From the IMG/VR virus record IMGVR_UViG_2541047699_000015: a stretch of 41,468 nucleotides of DNA. One strand, given 5' to 3'. Of the stretch, positions 1 through 26,090 are shown in pieces; positions within the stretch are counted from its first letter, which is position 1; every line of letters starts with the position of its first letter. This DNA is from a virus. Its lineage: Duplodnaviria; Heunggongvirae; Uroviricota; Caudoviricetes. A model generated the notes under the pieces. It did not search any database. It was not told the origin of the DNA and worked only from the letters and a program-made list of their open reading frames with translations. The translations under genes were made by a program, and so were the position numbers.

Positions 1-516
1 ATGAAATTTAAAAAATGTCTTCTGCCTGTGGCAATGTTAGCGTCATTCACTCTGGCAGGATGCCAGTCAAATGCTGATGATCATGCCGCCGATGTTTATC
101 AAACCGATCAACTGAATACCAAACAAGAAACTAAAACCGTTAATATTATTTCCATTCTTCCCGCAAAAGTTGCCGTAGACAACGCCCAAAATAAACGAAA
201 TGCACAAGCCTTCGGCGCGCTTATTGGTGCAGTCGCTGGCGGTGTAATCGGCCACAACGTGGGGTCTGGCAGCAATTCCGGAACGACGGCAGGTGCAGTT
301 GGCGGCGGAGCTGTTGGCGCGGCAGCGGGTTCTATGGTGAATGATAAAACCTTAGTGGAAGGTGTTTCTCTAACGTATAAGGAAGGCACCAAAGTGTATA
401 CCTCCACCCAGGTGGGTAAAGAGTGCCAGTTTACGACAGGTTTAGCCGTTGTTATTACCACGACGTATAACGAAACGCGTATTCAGCCAAATACGAAATG
501 TCCTGAAAAGAGCTAA
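1..516 (+). CDS. yfgH: Host outer-membrane lipoprotein with glycine-zipper segment (YfgH-like)
   Basis: N-terminal signal peptide with lipobox LAGC; Gly/Ala-rich segment GALIGAVAGGVIGH...AGAVGGGAVGAAAG; 171 aa directly followed by a 179-aa secreted coiled-coil ORF, matching the E. coli yfgH-yfgI pair as remembered (not searched). Confidence 0.6.
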   Translation: MKFKKCLLPVAMLASFTLAGCQSNADDHAADVYQTDQLNTKQETKTVNIISILPAKVAVDNAQNKRNAQAFGALIGAVAGGVIGHNVGSGSNSGTTAGAVGGGAVGAAAGSMVNDKTLVEGVSLTYKEGTKVYTSTQVGKECQFTTGLAVVITTTYNETRIQPNTKCPEKS

Positions 517-531
517 TGATCAGGAGGAGTC

Positions 532-1071
532 ATGAAGAAAGTTTTTCTTTGCGCCATCTTAGCCTCCTTAAGCTATCCGGCTATCGCCTCATCATTGCAG
601 GATCAACTCTCGGCTGTCGCAGAAGCGGAACAGCAAGGTAAAAATGAAGAGCAAAGGCAGCATGACGAATGGGTCGCGGAGCGCAACAGGGAAATCCAGC
701 AAGAGAAGCAACGTCGCGCAAACGCCCAGGCCGCGGCTAATAAAAGAGCGGCAACGGCAGCGGCGAATAAGAAAGCTCGTCAGGATAAACTGGACGCCGA
801 AGCCACTGCGGACAAAAAACGCGATCAAAGTTATGAAGATGAGCTACGCAGCTTAGAGATTCAGAAGCAAAAACTGGCGCTGGCGAAAGAAGAAGCCCGC
901 GTTAAGCGAGAAAACGAATTTATCGATCAGGAACTGAAGCACAAAGCTGCGCAAACCGATGTGGTGCAATCTGAAGCTGACGCAAACAGGAATATGACTG
1001 AAGGCGGTCGCGATCTGATGAAAAGCGTGGGCAAAGCAGAAGAGAATAAATCAGATAGCTGGTTTAATTAA
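532..1071 (+). CDS. yfgI: Host secreted coiled-coil protein (YfgI-like)
   Basis: RBS AGGAGG upstream of ATG 532; signal peptide ending AIA; highly charged K/E/Q/A-rich coiled-coil-like body; 179 aa; symbol from memory. Confidence 0.55.
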   Translation: MKKVFLCAILASLSYPAIASSLQDQLSAVAEAEQQGKNEEQRQHDEWVAERNREIQQEKQRRANAQAAANKRAATAAANKKARQDKLDAEATADKKRDQSYEDELRSLEIQKQKLALAKEEARVKRENEFIDQELKHKAAQTDVVQSEADANRNMTEGGRDLMKSVGKAEENKSDSWFN

Positions 1072-1288: not shown

Positions 1289-1771
1289 CTATCTGGTCAG
1301 TGTGTCGTACTGTTTTTCGCAGACTCTTCCGGCTTCGGCTGCCCGGTCAGCATACTCTGCCAGTTGTCTGTTTCTCTCGAGAGATTTGCTGAGCACGTCG
1401 GCAAGCAAAACTCCGGTGTCTGCGGCTGACGTCCCAGCGCCGACAATGGCGTTATACTGCCTGAGCTGCTCACGGATGGCAAAGAGTTGTTGCTGCAACC
1501 GGCCAGCGCGAGCGGCAGCATCAAGAGCATCATTGCGCGCCTGGTCGATCCTCTGCTGAGCTTCACGTTCATTGGCCACTTTCTCCTGTTCGTAGTACTG
1601 ACGAACTTTGTCTTCTTCGGCTTTGCGGTCTTCTTCCGCCTGCGCATACCCGGCATCGTACTGGCGACTGCCGTGTATATTCCAGGAAACCACTCCGACG
1701 ATGAACAGAGCAGCAAGCATCAACACAATAAGCATCTGTTTCCAATATGCTTTTACGAATGCCCAGATCAT
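1289..1771 (-). CDS. Rz-like i-spanin
   Basis: N-terminal TM helix then charged coiled coil; last gene of lysis cassette; start ATG overlaps endolysin stop (ATGA); contains embedded lipoprotein ORF in another frame. Confidence 0.75.
   Translation of the reverse strand: MIWAFVKAYWKQMLIVLMLAALFIVGVVSWNIHGSRQYDAGYAQAEEDRKAEEDKVRQYYEQEKVANEREAQQRIDQARNDALDAAARAGRLQQQLFAIREQLRQYNAIVGAGTSAADTGVLLADVLSKSLERNRQLAEYADRAAEAGRVCEKQYDTLTR
1297..1533 (-). CDS. Rz1-like o-spanin embedded in Rz
   Basis: Out-of-frame ORF inside Rz starting MMLLMLPLALAGC (lipobox), Pro-rich mature part; start chosen at tandem ATG 1533/1530, the track ORF extends further upstream. Confidence 0.65.
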   Translation of the reverse strand: MMLLMLPLALAGCSNNSLPSVSSSGSITPLSALGRQPQTPEFCLPTCSANLSRETDNWQSMLTGQPKPEESAKNSTTH

Positions 1772-2397
1772 ATAGCCAGCACCTTACTGGCAGTGACGTA
1801 CCGCGCGCGCCGGTCGTCGATGCCGTTCCGGCCACCATTGATAATCAGAGTTACACGTGCAATATCGCCGGTATACTTCATGCATCCTTTGCTGGCAAAG
1901 AACCACGCCGCGCTACGAGCCGCGTATTCGTCCTGCGCCAGCAGTTCAGGACTCTCCAGCAGGTCAACCTTAAGACCGTTTCCACAGTCACGATAGTTAT
2001 TCAAACCGGTAATCTGGATAAGTCCGCGACCACGGTAATTCCAGCCATCACCAGAGGCATTGTTACCCATGCGTTTGCTGTACACCAGATTTGCGATCGC
2101 GCGCTGGCGCTCGAGTGGCAATGGTGGCTCACCAGCACGGCGGCCCAGTGCGTTAGCCTGTCCCTGGGTGAGACGCCCAGCCCGAACGAAGTTAGCCAGT
2201 CCGGTGACGCTGTAGTTGAAATTTTCCTGCAACCGGTTGAAGCCACCAGACTCATGCCCGACCTGAGCAATAAACATTGCCTGATCTTCGGGTTTGCTGA
2301 TACCAAACTCTTTCATCGCAGAAGTTATATGCGAGAACCAGCGTGCGGCCAGCGCCTCGCTAATACCAGCAGCTCGCTGGAATTGTTTAATCTCCAT
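1768..2397 (-). CDS. Endolysin, glycoside hydrolase family 19 (lysozyme/chitinase-like)
   Basis: Motifs GHESGGF and YRGRGLIQITG typical of GH19 phage endolysins; start set at ATG 2397 (MEIKQ) with SD GAGGT 7 nt upstream, not the 286-aa track ORF. Confidence 0.8.
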   Translation of the reverse strand: MEIKQFQRAAGISEALAARWFSHITSAMKEFGISKPEDQAMFIAQVGHESGGFNRLQENFNYSVTGLANFVRAGRLTQGQANALGRRAGEPPLPLERQRAIANLVYSKRMGNNASGDGWNYRGRGLIQITGLNNYRDCGNGLKVDLLESPELLAQDEYAARSAAWFFASKGCMKYTGDIARVTLIINGGRNGIDDRRARYVTASKVLAI

Positions 2398-2695
2398 GTT
2401 TAGACCTCGATATTTTGAAAATATGAACAACGTTACCGCGTGTTTTAATAACCGCGGCAAGCATGACAGCGTTGATAATGACCTCAGATAAATCCACAGC
2501 CATTGGCGTGCGTAACCAGATTGCATAGACGACACGAACAGGAATACTTGCCGCAGCAACAATAAGGAAATAAGCAAGCCACCCTCCCCATCTTCGATGT
2601 TGAGAGCCGTTACGCCGGAATGTGACAACGCGAATTGCTATGCCAGTACAAATAACTGCATTGGTGATAAGCAAAAAAAACTCATGCGTTACCAT
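2387..2695 (-). CDS. Holin/antiholin-like small membrane protein
   Basis: 102 aa with 2-3 hydrophobic helices, directly upstream of and overlapping endolysin start; start overlaps stop of preceding membrane protein. Confidence 0.55.
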   Translation of the reverse strand: MVTHEFFLLITNAVICTGIAIRVVTFRRNGSQHRRWGGWLAYFLIVAAASIPVRVVYAIWLRTPMAVDLSEVIINAVMLAAVIKTRGNVVHIFKISRSKHGD

Positions 2696-3086
2696 CGTCT
2701 TTTCTCCCCGGAATTAACTCGCGTGGATTATCGGAACGGTGATAGAGCCAGATGCCAATACGCACGGCGACAATTGCTGACACGAATGCGCCTGCAGAGA
2801 AAACAATCCCTTTTTCAAAAGAGTCCTGCGTGATGGTAGGGATCAGGCTGGCTATGCCGATAAGAATTGATGCTGCTGGTTTGTAAAAGAGAAGGCCGCA
2901 AAGAAAGCTGAGCATCGACAGGAGCACCCGGCGACGGATGGGGTACTCTACTGCAGAGGTAACAAAAATTACCGCCCCAGCCAAAGCCCCTAAAGCAACC
3001 TCCGGAGGGACACCTGCAATAACCGCAGCAAGAGAACTAACACTAAGCCACTGATTTGAAGTTTCATTGGTTAGTTGGAATGACAT
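2682..3086 (-). CDS. Holin-like membrane protein (3 predicted TM helices)
   Basis: 134 aa, three hydrophobic segments, charged C-terminus; first gene of lysis cassette. Confidence 0.55.
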   Translation of the reverse strand: MSFQLTNETSNQWLSVSSLAAVIAGVPPEVALGALAGAVIFVTSAVEYPIRRRVLLSMLSFLCGLLFYKPAASILIGIASLIPTITQDSFEKGIVFSAGAFVSAIVAVRIGIWLYHRSDNPRELIPGRKDDGNA

Positions 3087-3158: not shown

Positions 3159-5621
3159 TCAATTCCCTGTTAATTGCAAAACTTGCTCTTCCAGCTTTTT
3201 AACCCTGCGTCTCATCATCGCAGATTCCAGAATCAGAGCCTCTTCATAACGGATACCGTAACATTCACCAGCCTCGACGGCTTCGCGTACCAGAACCTTT
3301 GTCTGTATAAGTGGGTAAACTCCTGCAGAATGCTCTTCTTCCGTCACATCCCTGTATTCTGCCGGGGTCTCATTCCACTTGTCATAACAGATAAATGCCA
3401 GTCGTGACACATCTATGCCTTCATTCTGAAATACACTGATAACATGCTGCGCAACTGCACCAAAGTGCCATCTTGCTCCGTCTTTACCTTTCACTTCGAT
3501 CCTGTCAAGGTACTGGTATGAAACCCATTCCACTCTTTCCCATGCGTCCAGTATTTTCTCATCAATAACCTCTGGAGCAGTCTTGAAACGCGCATCGGAC
3601 AGCACCGTAAACGCTGACTGGGTAAATCCCCCCGACCATGCACGACCAGCCAACCCAAGAGAATAAGTATTCGTTGTCGATGGTGTCATGGCTGAATCAG
3701 AAAACTGTATATATTCTGAATTTCCAGTAGATATTCGAATATTTCCATTTATTAGCGACATAGTGCCTTTAGTATTATCACTATTGAATAATTTCAATTG
3801 CGAACTTATACCGCCTCCCACAGCCAGAGATACATCGCCTTCAGCAAGCATTCTGAATTTATCTGCAGAAACAAGCGTCTGGTTAGCAAGGTTAAAATAT
3901 TTAACCCACCATTCAAAACGCCCTGACATAGTCCCAACGTACTGACCAAGCGCAGGGACGTGAACAACATTGCTATTTGTAGTGCCGTCTATACTGGAAA
4001 TACCAGTCACCGCTGATGCAGAACTCAGAATATTATTTCTGTCACCCGGATGTTTAATTTCAACAAAGTTCCTGATACACCCTTCCTCGAAGGTAACCAC
4101 GCCGGAAGAACTATACATGGGGAATATTGACGCATAATTACTGCGTGCAGCATCTAAGAAACGAATGGTTGTAGATGTCTGCAGATCTCCTGATTCATTT
4201 TTCCCATCACACCCAGTCATTAGAATATTACTGGCAATATTATTATTTCCCTGAACGGTGACTCCGTGCGCCTGCTTTGCGTCCGATTCAGAGTAATCAA
4301 CCAGCACATTCGAAATCAGGTTACCAGTCCCCTTGCCAACAACTACTGCGGCGTATTTTGGGTTGTTAGCCATTACACTGCTAATGATATTATTCGTTGG
4401 GGCAGTTTCCGTCTCAGTTCCATTGTAAACAACGTGCTGACACTCTTCACCAATAACATTGCTGACAATGTTATATTTTGCTGCTGTTTTAAGTTCCACT
4501 GCACCAAACTGAGGATAATTTCTGGCTATCACACCATCAATTAGCGTATTTTGCGATGAATCAAAAAGCACACAACCTGCTTTTTTATTATTTGCGAACC
4601 CTAAATACTCTCCTCTTATATCTCTAACAATGTAACCTGACGGAATACCATTATTCGGATAAGCGATCAAGCTAAATCCTGTTCCTCGCGTATTTGTAAA
4701 TCTGATATTTTTAACCGATACATCATGGCCACCTGAAAATGACACCTGGTGTCCCTGCACACTATCATCTGATTTATTTCCCATAATTGTTAGCGTACTA
4801 AGCATGCCACCATCGGGCATGTTAAAAACCAGATGATTACCATCTCTGTCATACTGTTTTATCGTTCCCCCACCTGTTCCGTACAAGCCACAACGTGAAA
4901 GAGAAACTAAAGATGTATTGAATACCCCTTCCGGAACAAAAACACTGCTAAACGAATGTAATGATTTTGTAAAAGCATCCTTGTTATCATTTAAGATTCC
5001 ATTTTGAGCTCCAAAATCCTTAATGCTGACACCATCACGCATCTTATCCTGGAACGTTCTGTATACCGCTCCAGAACCATACTGAATAAACCAACCAAAA
5101 CCACCAATAACTCCGGCGATTGCAGCATCGACATAATTACGCATTGAGCGATTATTTACAGCGTCCTGCTCAAGTGATGGATCGGCAAGGTTAGATATTC
5201 TGTTTTGCTTTGCATCGTAATATTTTGCAAGCAAAGATGGTTTCATCAATGCACGTCTGAACCACCCAAAACATCGCTGGATCAGCATCGTCAGGTAGTC
5301 AAATGCATCCTCATGAACTTCGGGGAAAAATTTTCCCTGATTGCGAAGATCAGTCTCCTGCACCACATCAAGCACACGCTCTATCGTGATTCGCCAGCCA
5401 GCAGCAAGCGGCGACGGAAGAACCACTGCACCGCCACTATAAGTTCCCGCCCCTGTTACCGTATAACCAGCATCCAGCACTAGTTTTGTAACGTTACCGT
5501 TAAGGTCAGACACCTGAACAACCAGGTCGGATTTTTTGAAAATACGGAAGGTATACGGAAATGATGTCGTAACGCCGTTACCTGTGTATTCGTTGTGGTC
5601 AACTTCGGTTGAGACCGTCAT
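3159..5621 (-). CDS. Tailspike: T7 gp17-like N-terminal anchor, beta-helix (pectate-lyase-like) depolymerase body, C-terminal S74-type autocleaving chaperone
   Basis: N-terminus GNGVTTSFPYTFRIFKKSDLVVQV resembles T7 tail fibre N-terminal domain; Gly/Asn/Ser/Thr-rich repetitive body; C-terminal SDARFK ... WHFG motif of intramolecular chaperone; SD GGAG 8 nt before ATG 5621. Confidence 0.75.
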   Translation of the reverse strand: MTVSTEVDHNEYTGNGVTTSFPYTFRIFKKSDLVVQVSDLNGNVTKLVLDAGYTVTGAGTYSGGAVVLPSPLAAGWRITIERVLDVVQETDLRNQGKFFPEVHEDAFDYLTMLIQRCFGWFRRALMKPSLLAKYYDAKQNRISNLADPSLEQDAVNNRSMRNYVDAAIAGVIGGFGWFIQYGSGAVYRTFQDKMRDGVSIKDFGAQNGILNDNKDAFTKSLHSFSSVFVPEGVFNTSLVSLSRCGLYGTGGGTIKQYDRDGNHLVFNMPDGGMLSTLTIMGNKSDDSVQGHQVSFSGGHDVSVKNIRFTNTRGTGFSLIAYPNNGIPSGYIVRDIRGEYLGFANNKKAGCVLFDSSQNTLIDGVIARNYPQFGAVELKTAAKYNIVSNVIGEECQHVVYNGTETETAPTNNIISSVMANNPKYAAVVVGKGTGNLISNVLVDYSESDAKQAHGVTVQGNNNIASNILMTGCDGKNESGDLQTSTTIRFLDAARSNYASIFPMYSSSGVVTFEEGCIRNFVEIKHPGDRNNILSSASAVTGISSIDGTTNSNVVHVPALGQYVGTMSGRFEWWVKYFNLANQTLVSADKFRMLAEGDVSLAVGGGISSQLKLFNSDNTKGTMSLINGNIRISTGNSEYIQFSDSAMTPSTTNTYSLGLAGRAWSGGFTQSAFTVLSDARFKTAPEVIDEKILDAWERVEWVSYQYLDRIEVKGKDGARWHFGAVAQHVISVFQNEGIDVSRLAFICYDKWNETPAEYRDVTEEEHSAGVYPLIQTKVLVREAVEAGECYGIRYEEALILESAMMRRRVKKLEEQVLQLTGN

Positions 5622-5724
5622 GTTAAATCTCCAGATAGTCGCAGCACCCGTTGCGCCGCATATCTGGTTATTCTATTACCCAAAAAACCATATATGGATA
5701 GAAAGACTGTGAATATGAATAGAT

Positions 5725-5741
5725 ATTACCTTTCAGGTAAT
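5725..5741. promoter_or_regulatory. 17-bp operator ATTACCTTTCAGGTAAT
   Basis: Perfect ATTACC-N5-GGTAAT palindrome in the divergent region between tailspike and plus-strand island. Confidence 0.6.
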
Positions 5742-5777
5742 TTGCAAAACGTGCTGGATAGCAAACAAATTATTTGC

Positions 5778-5797
5778 TACTGTATAAATATACAGTT
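5778..5797. promoter_or_regulatory. LexA (SOS) box TACTGTATAAATATACAGTT
   Basis: CTGT-N8-ACAG with AT-rich spacer, 18/20 match to consensus TACTGTATATATATACAGTA as remembered; 20 nt upstream of SD/start of gene 5818. Confidence 0.75.
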
Positions 5798-5817
5798 ATT
5801 GCATGGAGAAGATTAAG

Positions 5818-6075
5818 ATGCAGCAGTATCACTATCCACTGGAAGAGGGATTTACCGAAAGGATTCACACGCCGGGAGGCGTCAGGTCACTGGTGGAGGG
5901 ATCGCACTTGATGAAATTACTCCGGGATCTCGATAAGGATGGATTTAATGTCGATGGCCCACTTGCCGAACTGACTGCACTGATTAACTACGTCACCAGC
6001 TCACAGATGTCTATGCAGGATCTGCAAACACATCTCGACTATTGTGCCGAACAATTACGAAAACAAACCAGATAA
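5818..6075 (+). CDS. Small LexA-box-preceded protein, paralog of C-terminal domain of ORF6N protein; candidate antirepressor
   Basis: SD GGAGAA 6 nt before ATG 5818 (track start 5803 lacks SD); product aligns with C-terminus of 6889-7608 product (IH-P-GV...LM-LL...DG-V-G-AELT...QTH-Y). Confidence 0.6.
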   Translation: MQQYHYPLEEGFTERIHTPGGVRSLVEGSHLMKLLRDLDKDGFNVDGPLAELTALINYVTSSQMSMQDLQTHLDYCAEQLRKQTR

Positions 6076-6078
6076 GGT

Positions 6079-6122
6079 TTGCAATTACCAAATGGAGTGC
6101 TTATATTTACCTTTGCGGTAAA
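6079..6122 (+). promoter_or_regulatory. Sigma70-like promoter (TTGCAA-N17-TATATT) with overlapping operator TTTACCTTTGCGGTAAA
   Basis: -35 at 6079-6084, -10 at 6102-6107, operator 6106-6122 begins 22 nt after the -35 hexamer, same spacing as at 7653 and 35931. Confidence 0.55.
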
Positions 6123-6155
6123 TTTACATCGCACTCCTCTTGTGCCATAGTAATC

Positions 6156-6194
6156 GGGCACTGGCAAAATCCAGTGCCGGGATTGGCGTCCCGG
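6156..6194 (+). ncRNA. Structured leader: two mutually exclusive hairpins
   Basis: Hairpin A GGCACTGG/CCAGTGCC (6157-6178) and hairpin B CCGGGA/TCCCGG (6177-6194) share the CCGG segment, so only one can form. Confidence 0.35.
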
Positions 6195-6212
6195 ATTACT
6201 AGTAGGCGCATA

Positions 6213-6234
6213 CCACGCCAGACGTGGTTTTTTT
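6213..6234 (+). terminator. Rho-independent terminator/attenuator in leader
   Basis: Hairpin CCACG-CCAGA-CGTGG followed by T7 run. Confidence 0.6.
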
Positions 6235-6389
6235 ATGCGTATAGCACAGTCATATCCGAATTATGGTGGGCTGGGCAGGGGCACCGAAAGGTGCGCCGGT
6301 ACCTACTAGGCCGGTACGCCAACCTTGTCCAGTTCACCACCAGCAATTGGCGTTGCGGTGGTGGGTAACTTACTAGTAGAGGTATCGCT

Positions 6390-6896
6390 ATGCCAGGCCA
6401 AAAAATCTCAAACGACGATCTGTATTGGTTAATTTCTAATTCTCCACTCCTTCTTATGCTAAGGCAAGAAAGTGCACCACTGGTCAGTGAATTGATTAGC
6501 TGTAGAAATAGAATGTGGGATGAAGGGGCAGATTTAGATACCAATTTGTTTGATCATCTTATGCAACTAGCAGTCGATAACAAGGCAAAACTACGCTCTG
6601 AATACAACGCTTATCCAGAAATAGCAAAATACCTTAACGCTGAAATACTTGGTGGACCAGGTCAACCAGACCTAAAAACAAAAGATGGTTACCCTGTTGA
6701 GGTGAAGGTAGATACTTTTTCTCCTTCAGCATTAAAACAATTATTAAGGTATATGGATGCTTCTGGCGCAGATTTTGGTTTTGCTTGTGCAAAAACTCTT
6801 TCTGTAAAACTCCCTGAAAACATAAAGTTCATCCAGTTAGATTATAAAGATAATTGCTATTTCGTCGTGAAAGATGGAGGCAATGAAAATGCGTAA
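6390..6896 (+). CDS. Hypothetical protein (accessory island)
   Basis: SD AGAGG 7 nt before ATG 6390; 168 aa; no family recognised; stop overlaps next start (ATGCGTAA). Confidence 0.6.
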   Translation: MPGQKISNDDLYWLISNSPLLLMLRQESAPLVSELISCRNRMWDEGADLDTNLFDHLMQLAVDNKAKLRSEYNAYPEIAKYLNAEILGGPGQPDLKTKDGYPVEVKVDTFSPSALKQLLRYMDASGADFGFACAKTLSVKLPENIKFIQLDYKDNCYFVVKDGGNENA

Positions 6897-7608
6897 TATA
6901 GCTATTGATAAGTTGCCGATAACAACTCATTGCAACATCCCTGTAATGACTACAGAAATGCTTGCTGATTTGTATGACACAGAACCCAAACTGATTCGTC
7001 AAAACTATCAACGAAATGCAGATCGATTCATTGAGGGAAAACATTGTTTCAAGCTGATAGGCGAAGAATTACGAGCATTTAAGAACGAGTCCTCTCAAAG
7101 AGGTTTGCTTAATATTGCACCAAAAGTAAGTCATCTTTTCTTATGGACCGCTCGCGGTGCAGCACGACATGCGAAAATTCTTGAGACTGAAAAAGCGTGG
7201 GAGGTCTTCGAAAAACTGGAAGATTGCTACTTCGACAGAAAACCCGCAAATGTCAGCGGAGATGTTCGTCTCTCAGGTGGAGCTGATTTATCAAAGGCCA
7301 CTCAGGTAATTGAAAAATTCATGCCCGCCATTATGGAGGCGATCAAGCTGGAAGACAAAAAAGAATACAGTGCCCCACTGAAGCCCGGCTACCGCAGTCT
7401 GATTCATTCTCCGTCTGGTGTTCTCGGCCTGACGGAGAACTCATTGCTGATGAATCTGCTGAATCAGTTGCAGGACGACGGGCATGATGTATCGGGCGCG
7501 GCGGCGGAGCTGACCACCATGTTCTGCTACATCGTCGGTGTGAGCAAATGCCTGCGTGATATCCAGACCCACGCGGAGTACATCAACGACAAAGCAGGAT
7601 TCTTCTGA
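6889..7608 (+). CDS. ORF6N-domain protein (phage antirepressor-like) with C-terminal domain shared with 5818-6075
   Basis: N-terminal segment VMTTEMLADLYDTEPKLIRQNYQRNADRF...LWTARGAARHAKIL resembles ORF6N domain of antirepressor-type proteins; start at ATG 6889 with SD GGAGG 8 nt upstream. Confidence 0.6.
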   Translation: MRNIAIDKLPITTHCNIPVMTTEMLADLYDTEPKLIRQNYQRNADRFIEGKHCFKLIGEELRAFKNESSQRGLLNIAPKVSHLFLWTARGAARHAKILETEKAWEVFEKLEDCYFDRKPANVSGDVRLSGGADLSKATQVIEKFMPAIMEAIKLEDKKEYSAPLKPGYRSLIHSPSGVLGLTENSLLMNLLNQLQDDGHDVSGAAAELTTMFCYIVGVSKCLRDIQTHAEYINDKAGFF

Positions 7609-7652
7609 CGGGCGGCGGCACAGGGATGTGCCTTTAAATAATTCTGTACAGA

Positions 7653-7696
7653 TTGCAGACCGGGGGTGAATAGCGTACTATTACCTTAAAGGTAAA
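7653..7696 (+). promoter_or_regulatory. Promoter (TTGCAG-N17-TACTAT) with overlapping operator ATTACCTTAAAGGTAAA
   Basis: -35 at 7653-7658; operator 7680-7696 starts 22 nt after -35; precedes gene 7738. Confidence 0.5.
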
Positions 7697-7737
7697 CCTG
7701 TTTTTATTTTATACCTGTAACTTACCGGAGATTAAAG

Positions 7738-8064
7738 ATGACAAAACTTGGATTCGTGATGAGAGGTCCGGTAAGAAGCGGAACTCATGCAAAGCGTAGC
7801 AAGAGTCGTATTTTTACTGGTAAGGTTGTAGCACGTAAATCAGCTATTGGCTCGTTCAATAGTGAAAATGCGGCATTGCGCCATATTTTTATCAGCACAA
7901 AGCCAAGAGCATCCGCTGATGTGCATACAATGTCTATTCCTATCACAAAGAATATCAAGCGGATAAAAAAGCTCTCATCTGCAGAATCAAAAGAGATATC
8001 TTTCCGCCAGCTTAACTCATTAGAAACGCATATGAAGGAAGAGGAATTCGATGTTTTTGAGTGA
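7738..8064 (+). CDS. Basic small protein, possible antitoxin-like partner of downstream gene
   Basis: SD GGAG 7 nt before ATG; 108 aa, basic N-terminus, acidic C-terminus; C-terminal RQLNSLETH faintly resembles YefM/Phd NSLEE motif; 14-nt overlap with next gene. Confidence 0.5.
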   Translation: MTKLGFVMRGPVRSGTHAKRSKSRIFTGKVVARKSAIGSFNSENAALRHIFISTKPRASADVHTMSIPITKNIKRIKKLSSAESKEISFRQLNSLETHMKEEEFDVFE

Positions 8065-8563
8065 GTATAGCGGGAAGGTTATACCTACTGGTGAGTTTAA
8101 AACTGATGACTTTCTGATTTCGCTAAAAGATGCTTTTAAACAACACTGGCGTCATGGTCATCATCCTGATCTGGGAAAAGATACTCTTTTTGAAAGACCA
8201 GACGAAGTATTAGGCTTCCATCTCAGAAAGGTTCATGTCAATATTGGTGAATATGCATCATATTCATACTCATGTACTGAACAGTGTTGGGATGAGTGGT
8301 CATATGGATTGATTGATGAACAAGGAAATTACAGGCCAAAACCAACCAGTAACGCATATCTCATATATGCAGTCAATGAAATAAGAGATGCAGCCTTACT
8401 AGCTTATTGGGACCCGCCCGCACACACCAAAGCTAACGCAAAAGTTTGGATGGATTCCGTATTGAATTTCACAAAATTATTTCATGAACGAACGAATACA
8501 GCTCCACTTAGTAGAAATGTTTATCCGTGGGATTATTCGTACAAATCCAAAAAGCCTGCATAG
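8051..8563 (+). CDS. Candidate YafO-like toxin family protein (tentative)
   Basis: Segments DAFKQHWRHGHHPDLGKDTLFERPDE and FHLRKVHVNIGE resemble remembered E. coli YafO (DFISYKRDGVLPDTFGRDALYDD, ERVAHIHLANE); from memory only. Confidence 0.4.
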   Translation: MFLSEYSGKVIPTGEFKTDDFLISLKDAFKQHWRHGHHPDLGKDTLFERPDEVLGFHLRKVHVNIGEYASYSYSCTEQCWDEWSYGLIDEQGNYRPKPTSNAYLIYAVNEIRDAALLAYWDPPAHTKANAKVWMDSVLNFTKLFHERTNTAPLSRNVYPWDYSYKSKKPA

Positions 8564-8644
8564 TAGTTTTTTATGGACGAAACAAAAGTCAGTGCTACAC
8601 TCATTGACGCCACATTGAGGTGGCTTATAGATGGAAATTTCACA

Positions 8645-8806
8645 ATGAAAAAAGCATTTGCTGCACTGTTCGTTTTGTTGTCTCTGGTAGCTTCAACTCA
8701 GGCCTTTGCCGGTCGTTGTCAGCACGACAGCGACACTGCTGCTGACGGCTCCCGCTGCGGTGGGCGTTCTGCGGATTCCCGCCCGGGTGGCGGTGGCATT
8801 CGTTAA
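8645..8806 (+). CDS. Small secreted Cys-containing peptide
   Basis: Signal peptide MKKAFAALFVLLSLVASTQAFA then 31-aa Gly/Ser/Asp-rich mature part with two Cys; start at ATG 8645 rather than track start 8573. Confidence 0.45.
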   Translation: MKKAFAALFVLLSLVASTQAFAGRCQHDSDTAADGSRCGGRSADSRPGGGGIR

Positions 8807-8828
8807 AAACAAGGCCGCGAAAGCGGCC
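8805..8828 (-). terminator. Rho-independent terminator ending the virion operon
   Basis: Minus-strand hairpin GGCCGC-TTTC-GCGGCC followed by TTGTTTTT. Confidence 0.65.
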
Positions 8829-8829
8829 T

Positions 8830-8841
8830 GTGACATGTCAC
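8830..8841. repeat. Palindrome GTGACATGTCAC, copy 1
   Basis: Perfect 12-bp palindrome; contains stop codon of lipoprotein gene; immediately upstream of terminator in direction of transcription. Confidence 0.8.
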
Positions 8842-9218
8842 GCAACGCAATTATTACCGCGCCATGTAACATTTTTAATAATCTTATCAGCACCAAACTC
8901 AACGTAAACAGAGCAACTGAAATGGAGTGTATAACCGCCATCAGTTGTTGCGTATGTGTTTGAATATATAGTATTACCAATTAGATTAGACGTAGTATTA
9001 TACGTTGTGGTTTGTGGTACGTTATAACTACCAGAGCTTGAGTAAACATACACTCTGTTTCCATCTGGAGATGTAAGCTCTCCCTGAGGATACCCCCACT
9101 GCTGAACCATTGCGTCTATACTCTGCCCGCGCCACGTAAGCATATTTCTTTCAAACTGTGCAGCTGACTGGCATCCAACGAGAAGCATAAATCCAAAAAT
9201 CAAAAATACTTTTCTCAT
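8838..9218 (-). CDS. Lipoprotein at end of virion operon (possible superinfection-exclusion or virion lipoprotein)
   Basis: Start at ATG 9218 with SD AGGGG; signal peptide with lipobox LLVGC; Ser/Thr/Tyr/Asn-rich mature protein. Confidence 0.6.
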   Translation of the reverse strand: MRKVFLIFGFMLLVGCQSAAQFERNMLTWRGQSIDAMVQQWGYPQGELTSPDGNRVYVYSSSGSYNVPQTTTYNTTSNLIGNTIYSNTYATTDGGYTLHFSCSVYVEFGADKIIKNVTWRGNNCVA

Positions 9219-9303
9219 AATTACCCCTATCATGGAAAAACAGCACCAATCCACAAATTAACTAGTTATTTTATTATTCTTCCGAACAATACAATTCCGA
9301 ATA

Positions 9304-9426
9304 CTACAAAGCCGAACCATGCCGCTGCACGCAACAGAGATTCCAATTGAAACCCATTTTTATCAAAATGTATGAATAGCATAAAAACGCTGCACATATT
9401 AGTACAATAAAAGTTATTTGAACCAT
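9304..9426 (-). CDS. Small hydrophobic peptide (about 40 aa), not in ORF track
   Basis: SD AAGGAG immediately after stop of upstream gene, 5 nt before second of tandem ATGs; product MVQITFIVLICAAFLCYSYILIKMGFNWNLCCVQRHGSAL; alternative is track ORF 9266-9454 which lacks an SD. Confidence 0.3.
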   Translation of the reverse strand: MVQITFIVLICAAFLCYSYILIKMGFNWNLCCVQRHGSAL

Positions 9427-9437
9427 CATATCTCCTT

Positions 9438-25850: not shown

Positions 25851-25927
25851 GTGGCATTAGCTCAGTTGGACAGAGCAACCGCCTTCTAAGCGGTTGGTCG
25901 CAGGTTCGAATCCTGCATGCCACGCCA
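25851..25927 (+). tRNA. tRNA-Arg (anticodon UCU), phage-encoded argU-like
   Basis: Cloverleaf read by eye: acceptor stem GTGGCAT/ATGCCAC, D-arm GCTC...GAGC, anticodon stem ACCGC/GCGGT with loop CTTCTAA (anticodon TCT at 25885-25887), T-arm GCAGG-TTCGAAT-CCTGC, discriminator G, encoded CCA. Confidence 0.9.
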
Positions 25928-26012: not shown

Positions 26013-26090
26013 ACAGCAGGACGCCATTGCGATGACTTCATGCTGTAAACCAGTACAGCCACGGAAGGCATAACTCATTGCTTCCAGTTC

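Follow-up and report, generated by a model that had tools for sequence, protein, structure and literature searches.

A predicted K5-capsule lyase tailspike, most likely ElmA or an allele of it, in an epsilon15-like Escherichia coli prophage

The tailspike encoded in the 41,468-nucleotide stretch of viral DNA analyzed here (the window) is very probably a three-module, receptor-destroying lyase of the Escherichia coli K5 capsule, most likely the known enzyme ElmA or an allele of it, carried on a prophage. It is thus an ordinary, already known type of protein, a member of the KflA/ElmA K5-lyase family, and homology, fold, conserved motifs, genomic context, and an association with K5 hosts were all observed. 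The original prediction of an N-terminal attachment domain, a beta-helix, and a C-terminal chaperone was essentially right, in that all three were picked up by our tools, but it was too general.

The gene starts with ATG and comprises 820 codons, with the stop codon counted in positions 3159-5621 (minus strand), and the predicted mass of the precursor is 89.7 kDa. The protein matched two PHROG tail-spike families (E=1e-223 and 6e-205). The exact protein belongs to a cluster with 384 members, and among 5,426 complete genomes of E. coli, 68 contain an identical gene. The size of this cluster, together with 100% identity in many complete genomes, places the open reading frame far beyond chance and confirms it as a real gene. 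Its modules, and the lysis genes beside it, are as follows.

3159..5621, minus strand: tailspike coding sequence, 820 aa plus stop codon (ORF list, PHROG match)
5037..5621, minus strand: virion-anchor module, residues 1-195 (segment identities, model, Foldseek, PDB sequence match)
3942..5036, minus strand: beta-helix, predicted heparosan (K5) lyase domain, residues 196-560 (2x3h match, model)
4488..4511, minus strand: QFGAVELK motif, residues 371-378 (invariant in 17 K5-lyase homologues)
3600..3941, minus strand: C-terminal stalk of the mature spike, residues 561-674 (2x3h alignment)
3162..3599, minus strand: Peptidase_S74 intramolecular chaperone, residues 675-820, 146 aa (Pfam, 3gw6/3gud matches)
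3582..3599, minus strand: SDARFK, residues 675-680, with Ser675 as predicted nucleophile and Lys680 as predicted general base
1289..3086, minus strand: lysis cassette directly downstream (Pfam; RefSeq annotation of strain 4/0, which has the identical region)
2682..3086, minus strand: holin (Pfam)
2387..2695, minus strand: 3TM holin (Pfam)
1768..2397, minus strand: GH19 endolysin (Pfam)
1289..1771, minus strand: DUF2514 spanin-like protein (Pfam)

In a phmmer search of the PDB, the protein matched both KflA, the K5 lyase of coliphage K5A (2x3h, E=6e-185), and the tailspike of phage E1004 (9vvr, E=1e-225). KflA (Y10025; PDB 2X3H) is 58.3% identical to tailspike residues 201-817, and tailspike residues 201-750 align with KflA 31-580 at a constant offset of 170, without a single gap across 550 residues. 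The two proteins share (i) the catalytic beta-helix, the trimeric stalk, and the S74 chaperone, as well as (ii) the QFGAVELK and S-D-A-R-x-K motifs. Among 17 K5-lyase homologues with identities down to 39%, QFGAVELK is invariant, as are numerous other polar residues, and the tailspike keeps every column that is invariant across this set. The conserved residues include E376 and K378, whose counterparts in KflA are E206 and K208, reportedly proposed as active-site residues by Thompson et al. 2010.

Consistent with this homology, the AlphaFold model of the beta-helix reached a pLDDT of 84-97 across residues 200-520, and its top Foldseek match was 2x3h (E=2.7e-47, TM 0.73 on target), followed by HK620, CBA120, AlgE4, and other beta-helices. 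The Pfam Beta_helix profile scored 19.7 bits at residues 278-438, under its cut-off of 25.9 bits. The depolymerase-type beta-helix foreseen in the original prediction is therefore upheld by the model and by its closest fold match; the label of polysaccharide depolymerase names the right type but is too broad, since the protein is a close homologue of K5 heparosan lyases whose biochemistry and structure have been characterized. Likewise, the helix had been described as Gly/Asn/Thr-rich, which holds for Gly (11.1% of residues 201-560) and Asn (9.7%) but not for Thr (only 6.9%); with Ser at 10.3%, Gly/Asn/Ser-rich is more accurate.

The stalk that follows aligns with 2x3h as far as its last residue, and the equivalent region of KflA is an intertwined trimerization domain; as a monomer, the stalk was poorly modeled (pLDDT <50 at residues 564-604). 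Outside these shared parts, KflA differs from the tailspike in its total length of 632 aa and its N-terminal peptide of ~30 aa, whereas the tailspike carries a 195-aa epsilon15-type anchor and belongs to a temperate phage. The short peptide of KflA would fit attachment through an adapter protein, an arrangement that has been described in K1E/K1-5-type phages. Relative to KflA, the tailspike chaperone also contains 17 extra residues within 751-781. Further K5 lyases, namely those of E1004 (a T7-like coliphage; PDB 9VVR), Kayfunavirus, Vectrevirus, Kagunavirus, and the UE-S5 type, share the lyase and chaperone module at 54-57% identity, but the N-terminal adaptor is particular to each of these groups, with T7 PF03906, a short SP6-type peptide, and PF18668 among those used.

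The C-terminal module is an S74-type chaperone with the SDARFK motif, as had been proposed from the sequence. Peptidase_S74 (PF13884) matched residues 675-735 with E=1.4e-13 and 51.3 bits against a 22-bit cut-off, SDARFK occurs only once in the protein (residues 675-680), and both Ser675 and Lys680 are invariant in 44 homologues. Sequence matches to the chaperones of phage K1F endoNF (3gw6, E=8e-21) and GA-1 gp12 (3gud, E=2.4e-20) were accompanied by fold matches in Foldseek (3gud, TM 0.90 with an rmsd of 2.0 A; 3gw6, E=8e-10), and the AlphaFold model placed a long C-terminal helix at residues 792-819. The chaperones of endoNF (PDB 3GW6), GA-1 gp12 (3GUD), and T5 pb1 (4UW8) share the S74 fold and the Ser-Lys dyad with the tailspike, whereas their enzymatic domains are unrelated to its own and their upstream Arg/Asp sensors are out of register.

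By analogy with the T5 and K1F work, from which the S74 dyad and cleavage position are known, the scissile bond is predicted to be Leu674-Ser675, and autoproteolysis would yield fragments of 72.8 and 16.9 kDa. The 2x3h chain stops at the residue equivalent to Ser675, and the K5 lyase of phage K1-5 is processed from 67 to 52 kDa. In K1F and T5, a folding-sensor arginine contributed by the neighboring chain lies at -14 from the cleavage site, whereas the tailspike and its relatives do not conserve it at a fixed position: R660 of the tailspike lies at -15 and is present in 9 of 17 K5 lyases, and an arginine at position 661 occurs in 11 of 44 S74 proteins.

The N-terminal module is at least 94% identical in E. 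coli prophage spikes with unrelated enzymatic domains, and 63-70% identical to its counterparts in epsilon15/SPN1S/phiV10-type phages. Although the N-terminus of the first full-length model had a pLDDT below 50, a dedicated N-terminal model reached 83-90 across residues 9-82 and showed a beta-sandwich at about residues 9-82 that is joined by a linker to a long helix at 100-125. Its best Foldseek match was the Carin-1 fiber 8ck1 (E=6e-11, 46% identity), with T7-like fiber N-termini next, and a PDB sequence search matched the N-terminus to Dpo31/Dpo36 (E=6.5e-30); domain D1 of Dpo31 has been placed at the virion base. The tailspikes epsilon15 gp20 and those of phiV10/SPN1S, as well as Carin-1 Dpo31/Dpo36 (PDB 8CK1, 28LX), thus have the same N-terminal virion-binding module, but their receptor-binding or enzymatic domains are unlike that of the tailspike.

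This module had originally been called T7-type, which stands at the level of fold but not of sequence. Foldseek matched it to T7 gp17 N-termini (8dsp, E=1.6e-5; 7ey9, E=1.6e-4; 7boz, E=1.5e-3), with TM values of 0.41-0.56 on target and identities of 12-21%. At the sequence level, Phage_T7_tail (PF03906) remained below the Pfam cut-off (12.8 vs 25.2 bits, E=0.099, over only 27 residues, 135-161), none of the close relatives of the anchor module has a precomputed PF03906 match, and profile-profile comparison with T7-like N-termini in hhalign gave E=0.21 and a probability of 0.3%, with a T7-side profile that was thin and heterogeneous. The real family of the anchor is of the epsilon15/Carin-1 type, and it is no sequence-level member of PF03906; judging from the model, it probably works like the gp17 anchor.

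From these likenesses, we infer the catalysis, substrate, cleavage, and virion attachment of the tailspike as follows. The beta-sandwich and helix of residues 1-195 would plug the trimer into the tail, as suggested by homologous Carin-1 and T7 fibers that have been seen attached in virions. Residues 196-674 would form a single-stranded, right-handed parallel beta-helix followed by an intertwined trimeric stalk, and the beta-helix would bind the K5 capsule, that is, heparosan, [-4)-bGlcA-(1,4)-aGlcNAc-(1-]n. The GlcNAc-GlcA linkage would be cut by beta-elimination, leaving a 4,5-unsaturated uronate, and cleavage of the capsule would allow the phage to tunnel to the outer membrane. The S74 chaperone (residues 675-820) would nucleate folding of the trimer. 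After correct folding, Lys680 would activate Ser675 for its attack on the Leu674-Ser675 bond, which would free the 16.9-kDa fragment and leave a kinetically stable, 72.8-kDa mature subunit.

A complete epsilon15-like prophage adjoins yfgI in E. coli, and the tailspike gene precedes its lysis cassette. A LexA box suggests that the prophage is under SOS control. The cassette is the end of the prophage, with yfgI/yfgH beyond it (window positions 1-1071), and the gene set includes integrase, RecT, terminase, portal, capsid, tail, and lysis genes. We ruled out that the gene is left over from a prophage in decay, as all main modules are present and the tailspike gene is full-length in 68 of 68 carrier genomes, K1 hosts included. 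An epsilon15-type capsid staple, a core protein of the T7 gp14 family, and the yfgI site ruled out identity with CUS-3, a known K1 prophage that is P22-like and located at argW. Promoter and terminator scans around the tailspike gene gave nothing above shuffled expectation.

The genomes that carry the gene also point to K5. Among complete E. coli genomes, 36 of 68 carriers (53%) have the K5 capsule gene kfiC, compared with 233 of 5,358 non-carriers (4.3%), a 12-fold enrichment (odds ratio 24.7, Fisher p=7e-30, with clonal genomes counted as independent). One carrier of the identical gene, strain 4/0, has a full kfi locus in the arrangement kpsFEDUCS-kfiDCBA-kpsTM. This co-occurrence supports K5 specificity independently, and it also lends support to the earlier proposal that the central domain sets specificity for the host surface polysaccharide. 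The other 32 carriers (47%) lack kfiC; the only one of them inspected, MCJCHV-1, has a K1 locus, so that the spike no longer matches the host capsule there. MCJCHV-1 retains the kps frame found in strain 4/0, and the replacement is confined to region 2, consistent with a capsule that was switched after lysogeny.

ElmA, the chromosomal 'eliminase' (N-acetyl-heparosan lyase) of E. coli K5, was reportedly cloned by Legoux et al. in 1996, and its reported length of 820 aa is the same as that of the tailspike. The enzyme originally came from an E. coli K5 strain and has been used as a soluble heparosan cutter; it is listed among prophage lyases, with E. coli K5 as its source, and is described as a K5 lyase carrying an ICA/S74 domain. 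ElmA and the tailspike are both E. coli chromosomal, prophage-borne, ICA/S74-bearing K5 lyases, and a phage spike that shares the N-terminus of the tailspike is annotated as 'eliminase'. The names within the protein cluster of the tailspike are generic, and NCBI lists the protein as 'tail fiber domain-containing protein' or 'phage tail protein'. Most likely, the tailspike is ElmA or an allele of it; it may be ElmA itself or a sister allele, because a second 820-aa protein, P0016, also exists, with 89% overall identity and the lowest identity (74%) at residues 201-300, where the beta-helix starts.

A protein of this architecture might act on another substrate, if its beta-helix had diverged from that of KflA to recognize a non-K5 capsule or an O-antigen. 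An identity to KflA of just 58%, short of near-identity, leaves room for a shifted specificity, and both the concentration of P0016 divergence at residues 201-300 and the carriers without kfiC could be read in the same way. We nevertheless consider this very unlikely, because the alignment with KflA contains no indel in 550 residues, the dense set of invariant polar residues is kept, QFGAVELK included, and kfiC is enriched among the carriers, while the kfiC-negative MCJCHV-1 fits the capsule switch described above. Moreover, where prophages of K1 strains share this backbone, an endosialidase takes the place of the K5 lyase, which indicates that this lineage normally swaps whole modules rather than retuning one. 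A spike that only binds its receptor, with catalysis lost, is more improbable still, given that all columns invariant in K5 lyases are kept, including E376 and K378.

At least as unlikely as a changed substrate is a domesticated host enzyme, that is, a soluble or released lyase that serves the lysogen instead of forming a working part of the virion, whether by trimming or shedding its own K5 capsule, by attacking K5 competitors, or by cleaving unsulfated heparan-sulfate domains of mammals. The history of ElmA as a strain enzyme used in soluble form would suit such a role, as would the reported cleavage of unsulfated heparan sulfate by K5 lyase and the persistence of the full-length gene in every carrier, even in K1 hosts, where it gives no help with re-infection. 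However, the anchor module is still nearly identical to those of other spikes, the prophage is fully equipped with genes for structure, packaging, lysis, and integration, and the tailspike gene is part of the late region, with the lysis cassette directly downstream. No secretion signal was found in Pfam and PHROG scans or on inspection of the N-terminus, which also counts against domestication, and release through occasional prophage induction would explain a soluble enzyme without it.

For the kfiC-negative lysogens, a neutral relic of a K5-to-K1 switch after lysogeny is more likely than retention under selection. That selection has kept the gene there because the lyase benefits the bacterium, which could occur, for example, by cleaving unsulfated heparan-sulfate domains on host tissue or by stripping the capsule of K5 competitors, seems to us unlikely. 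If the relic reading is true, prophage spikes could be used as records of ancestral capsule type. The mismatch between K5 spike and K1 capsule provides a modest, testable way to study how clinical E. coli lineages switch capsules.

These findings leave current understanding unchanged, and their practical value is in annotation: the protein can be named as a tailspike of the K5 heparosan lyase type that bears a self-cleaving chaperone, and the spike predicts host range within the epsilon15-like prophage family. K5 lyases also have practical uses, in the sizing of heparosan for bioengineered heparin and as probes of heparan sulfate. Finally, the locus is a clean textbook case of module swapping, in which a single backbone and integration site, with the same anchor, is found with a K5 lyase, an endosialidase, a GH28-like enzyme, or an SGNH esterase. 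The tailspike's catalytic domain has a GC content of 41% (GC3 34%), compared with 50% in the prophage backbone.

The tailspike is encoded by an 820-codon ORF with an ATG start on the minus strand (3159-5621), which coincides exactly with the position given in the original prediction. Judged from sequence, this ORF is clearly a gene: two PHROG tail-spike families match its product (E = 1e-223 and 6e-205), the exact protein belongs to a cluster of 384 member sequences, and copies with 100% DNA identity occur in many complete E. coli chromosomes. These copies bear no annotation beyond "tail fiber domain-containing protein". Residues 201-560 are rich in Gly (11.1%), Ser (10.3%), and Asn (9.7%).

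In PDB sequence searches, the E1004 phage tailspike (9vvr) matched spike residues 192-814 (E = 1e-225), and KflA, the K5 (heparosan) lyase of coliphage K5A (2x3h), matched residues 199-675 (E = 6e-185). KflA (Y10025) and the spike are 58.3% identical over 600 alignment columns, with no gap across spike residues 201-750 and a constant offset of 170. Across 17 aligned K5-lyase homologues, the most distant of them 39% identical, a dense array of polar residues is strictly conserved, including the block QFGAVELK (residues 371-378), in which Glu376 and Lys378 align with KflA Glu206 and Lys208, putative active-site residues of that enzyme. An AlphaFold model of the spike, built from an alignment of 44 sequences, showed pLDDT values of 84-97 across residues 200-520 and the stack of short strands typical of a parallel β-helix. 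Its top Foldseek match in the PDB was 2x3h (E = 2.7e-47, 60% identity, TM 0.73 on the target), with subsequent matches including the S74 chaperones of K1F, T5, and GA-1 and other β-helix enzymes such as the HK620 and CBA120 spikes, AlgE4, and polygalacturonases. The depolymerase-type β-helix originally proposed is thus borne out by both the model confidence and the best structural match. According to reviews, KflA and the ORF46 protein of K1-5 cleave poly[-4)-bGlcA-(1,4)-aGlcNAc-(1-] by β-elimination, the linkage cut by K5 lyase is GlcNAc-GlcA, and sulfation inhibits the enzyme. We consider the spike very probably a K5 lyase tailspike of the ElmA/KflA type.

ElmA is listed as a prophage lyase of E. 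coli K5, an "eliminase" for cutting heparosan, and a named example of a K5 lyase carrying the ICA/S74 domain. The 624-aa spike of phage EC.W1-9, whose N-terminus is 95.8% identical to that of the present spike and whose distal part is different, is also annotated "eliminase", a label presumably transferred from ElmA. ElmA has a length of 820 aa, as do the spike and its 89%-identical allele P0016; that the spike is ElmA itself or an allele of it appears reasonably likely.

The cleavage motif SDARFK occurs once in the spike, at residues 675-680, within an above-cut-off match to Pfam Peptidase_S74 (residues 675-735, E = 1.4e-13). The isolated C-terminus matches the chaperones of the K1F endosialidase (3gw6, E = 8e-21) and the GA-1 neck appendage (3gud, E = 2.4e-20), as well as AS12 gp42 and T5 pb1, and the spike model superposes on 3gud with a TM of 0.90. 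S74 chemistry involves a Ser-Lys dyad spaced five residues apart, a cut immediately before the Ser, and an Arg of the neighbouring chain as folding sensor. Ser675 and Lys680 are invariant in 44 of 44 aligned homologues, including ones with unrelated enzymatic domains, and together with the Pfam and structural matches they confirm the predicted S74 chaperone. The sensor Arg lies at position -14 in K1F and T5, whereas Arg660 of the spike, a less clear candidate, lies at -15 and is present in only 9 of the 17 K5 lyases. The K1-5 K5 lyase matures from 67 to 52 kDa, the Carin-1 fibre Dpo31 loses an 18-kDa D4 domain on processing, and the 2x3h chain ends at the equivalent of Ser675. For the spike, the predicted processing is from 89.7 kDa to 72.8 plus 16.9 kDa. 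Compared with KflA and E1004, the chaperone is longer by 17 residues within 751-781 (nt about 3279-3371), and nowhere does the lyase module diverge more (29-39% identity to other phages' K5 lyases); the equivalent segment in the K1F and T5 structures is a variable "tentacle" hairpin.

The N-terminus had been described as T7-type, a designation that holds for its fold and not for its sequence. Pfam Phage_T7_tail scored 12.8 bits over 27 residues of it, below the 25.2-bit cut-off, and a profile-profile comparison with the N-termini of other K5-lyase relatives, T7-like ones among them, was not significant (E = 0.21). The segment is 63-70% identical to its counterparts in epsilon15, SPN1S, SPC32N, O157 typing phage 10, and TL-2011b, has distant relatives in Pseudomonas phage AF, BPP-1-like phages, and Pelagibacter podophages, and matches the solved Carin-1 fibres Dpo31/Dpo36 (E = 6.5e-30, PDB sequence search). 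A separate AlphaFold model of residues 1-200 contains a β-sandwich (residues 9-82, pLDDT 83-90) and a helix (residues 100-125). Foldseek placed Carin-1 first (E = 6e-11, 46% identity), and then the tail-attached fibre N-termini of PhiM1, LME-1, T7 (8dsp, 7ey9, 7boz), Kp7/Kp9, HRP29, and P-SCSP1u (E = 1e-5 to 1e-3, TM 0.34-0.56 on the target). Because of these latter matches, the anchor probably works like that of T7 gp17 and may be its distant homologue; its proper class should be that of the epsilon15/Carin-1 anchors.

Segment-wise identities revealed a sharp junction near residue 200, at the "...DFGA..." where the β-helix starts. Over residues 1-166, many prophage spikes of E. coli share 94-98% identity with this one; beyond, they are unrelated (10-20%), with GH28-like, peptidase G2, endosialidase, or GDSL distal domains. 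Conversely, K5 lyases from lytic T7-like, SP6-like, siphoviral, and ~73-kb phages share 45-70% identity with the spike at residues 301-560 and show no relationship to it at residues 1-166. GC content is lower in the lyase module (41%, GC3 34%) than in the anchor (46.5%) or the prophage backbone (50%), as would fit horizontal acquisition of the lyase as a cassette. When 25 kb of the window (1-25000) was searched against E. coli genomes, the backbone was found at the yfgI site of other strains with 82-87% coverage and about 97-98% identity; the genome closest to the window was that of strain SURV0398 (96% coverage, 99.7% identity). The classical K1 strains CE10 (O7:K1), IAI39, and APEC O1 carry this backbone at the same site with an "endosialidase catalytic beta-propeller" spike, and other strains carry GH28-related or SGNH/GDSL spikes on it. 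In the yfgI-site prophages, spike cassettes have thus been swapped naturally on a single backbone, which indicates that the lineage normally changes specificity by exchanging the complete module while the anchor stays constant.

A temperate phage's spike is expected to suit the surface of the cell that it lysogenises. Strain 4/0, an E. coli genome with the identical spike gene, carries a complete K5 locus (kpsFEDUCS-kfiD-kfiC-(kfiB)-kfiA-kpsTM) at the pheV island end. A query concatenating a lyase-specific fragment and a fragment of the K5 capsule gene kfiC, run against 5,426 complete E. coli genomes, found 68 genomes with the lyase and 269 with kfiC; 36 genomes had both. Hence, kfiC is present in 53% of lyase carriers versus 4.3% of non-carriers (odds ratio 24.7, Fisher p = 7e-30, a value that overstates the evidence, as many genomes are clonal, although the direction is clear). 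This enrichment supports the proposal that the central domain sets surface-polysaccharide specificity. The other 32 of the 68 carriers lack kfiC, so that in about half of the lysogens the predicted specificity does not match the current capsule, which is mildly unexpected. In the one such carrier inspected, the CSF isolate MCJCHV-1, region 2 holds K1 polysialic-acid genes (neuD/B/A/C/E/S-type) in the same kps frame and a similar island context as kfiDCBA in strain 4/0. The capsule loci compared were:

NZ_CP030111.1, 807858-823855 (L007)
NZ_CP023849.1, 3435298-3452863 (L006)

The simplest reading is that region 2 was replaced after lysogeny, leaving the spike mismatched to its host. One of 337 matches to the combined query lay on a plasmid; since the lyase fragment is chromosomal in 68 of 68 carriers, that match is kfiC-like sequence.

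By analogy with K1F, T5, and KflA, the C-terminal chaperone would bring three chains together and template the intertwined stalk. Motif and fold suggest that correct folding would then set Ser675 and Lys680, with cleavage at Leu674-Ser675 freeing 16.9 kDa, and the Carin-1 and T7 virion structures suggest that the β-sandwich anchor would dock the 72.8-kDa trimer on the tail. On a K5 cell, the β-helix would bind heparosan and cut it by β-elimination, as homology, fold, motif conservation, and host association suggest, after which the phage could descend to the outer membrane. The overall interpretation in the original prediction is therefore supported, if under-specified. The K5 lyase family was characterised genetically, biochemically, and structurally in 1996-2010, and a further virion structure was released in 2025; the spike is an ordinary member of this already characterised family.

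The prophage of strain 4/0 is annotated with a portal, major capsid, Bbp16-like cement, "capsid staple" gp10, T7 gp14-family core, and SLT-domain internal protein, a gene set that is the hallmark of epsilon15-like podophages. After its spike gene come two holins, a GH19 endolysin, a DUF2514 protein, and then chromosomal yfgI and yfgH. The window has the same layout and, judging from its additional genes for integrase, RecT, large terminase, portal, capsid, and tail, appears to hold a complete prophage. A promoter/terminator scan around the spike gene gave no signal above shuffled expectation. Other elements of the window are:

5780-5795: near-consensus LexA (SOS) box TACTGTATAAATATACAGTT (CTGT-N8-ACAG), 7 nt ahead of the ATG (5803) of the plus-strand accessory operon
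5803-8806, plus strand: accessory cluster, opposite to the structural genes, between spike and tail genes
within the cluster, plus strand: a 90-aa ORF, a 168-aa ORF, and a 77-aa Gly-rich ORF
6874-7608, plus strand: ORF6N-domain protein (Pfam E = 1e-18)
within the cluster, plus strand: overlapping pair of 108-aa and 170-aa ORFs
8838-9254, minus strand: 138-aa ORF with a lipoprotein-like N-terminus, MRKVFLIFGFMLLVGCQ
25851-25927, plus strand: tRNA-Arg (anticodon TCT), within the prophage and flanked by its portal and terminase regions

GC is low (42.6%) over 5622-9437. The 170-aa ORF has a weak, below-cut-off likeness to the YafO toxin (E = 9.5e-4), and ORFs 5803-6075 and 6874-7608 look alike, by eye, over their last ~50 residues. 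The 138-aa ORF, flanked by the tail genes and the accessory cluster, had no Pfam match and is a possible superinfection-exclusion or moron gene. The LexA box, about 160 nt upstream of the spike start codon, probably puts an antirepressor module under SOS control, as in the epsilon15-like phage SPC32H. The window contains three CTGT-N8-ACAG sites against 0.55 expected, a second one lying just downstream of the tRNA-Arg gene (26043-26058).
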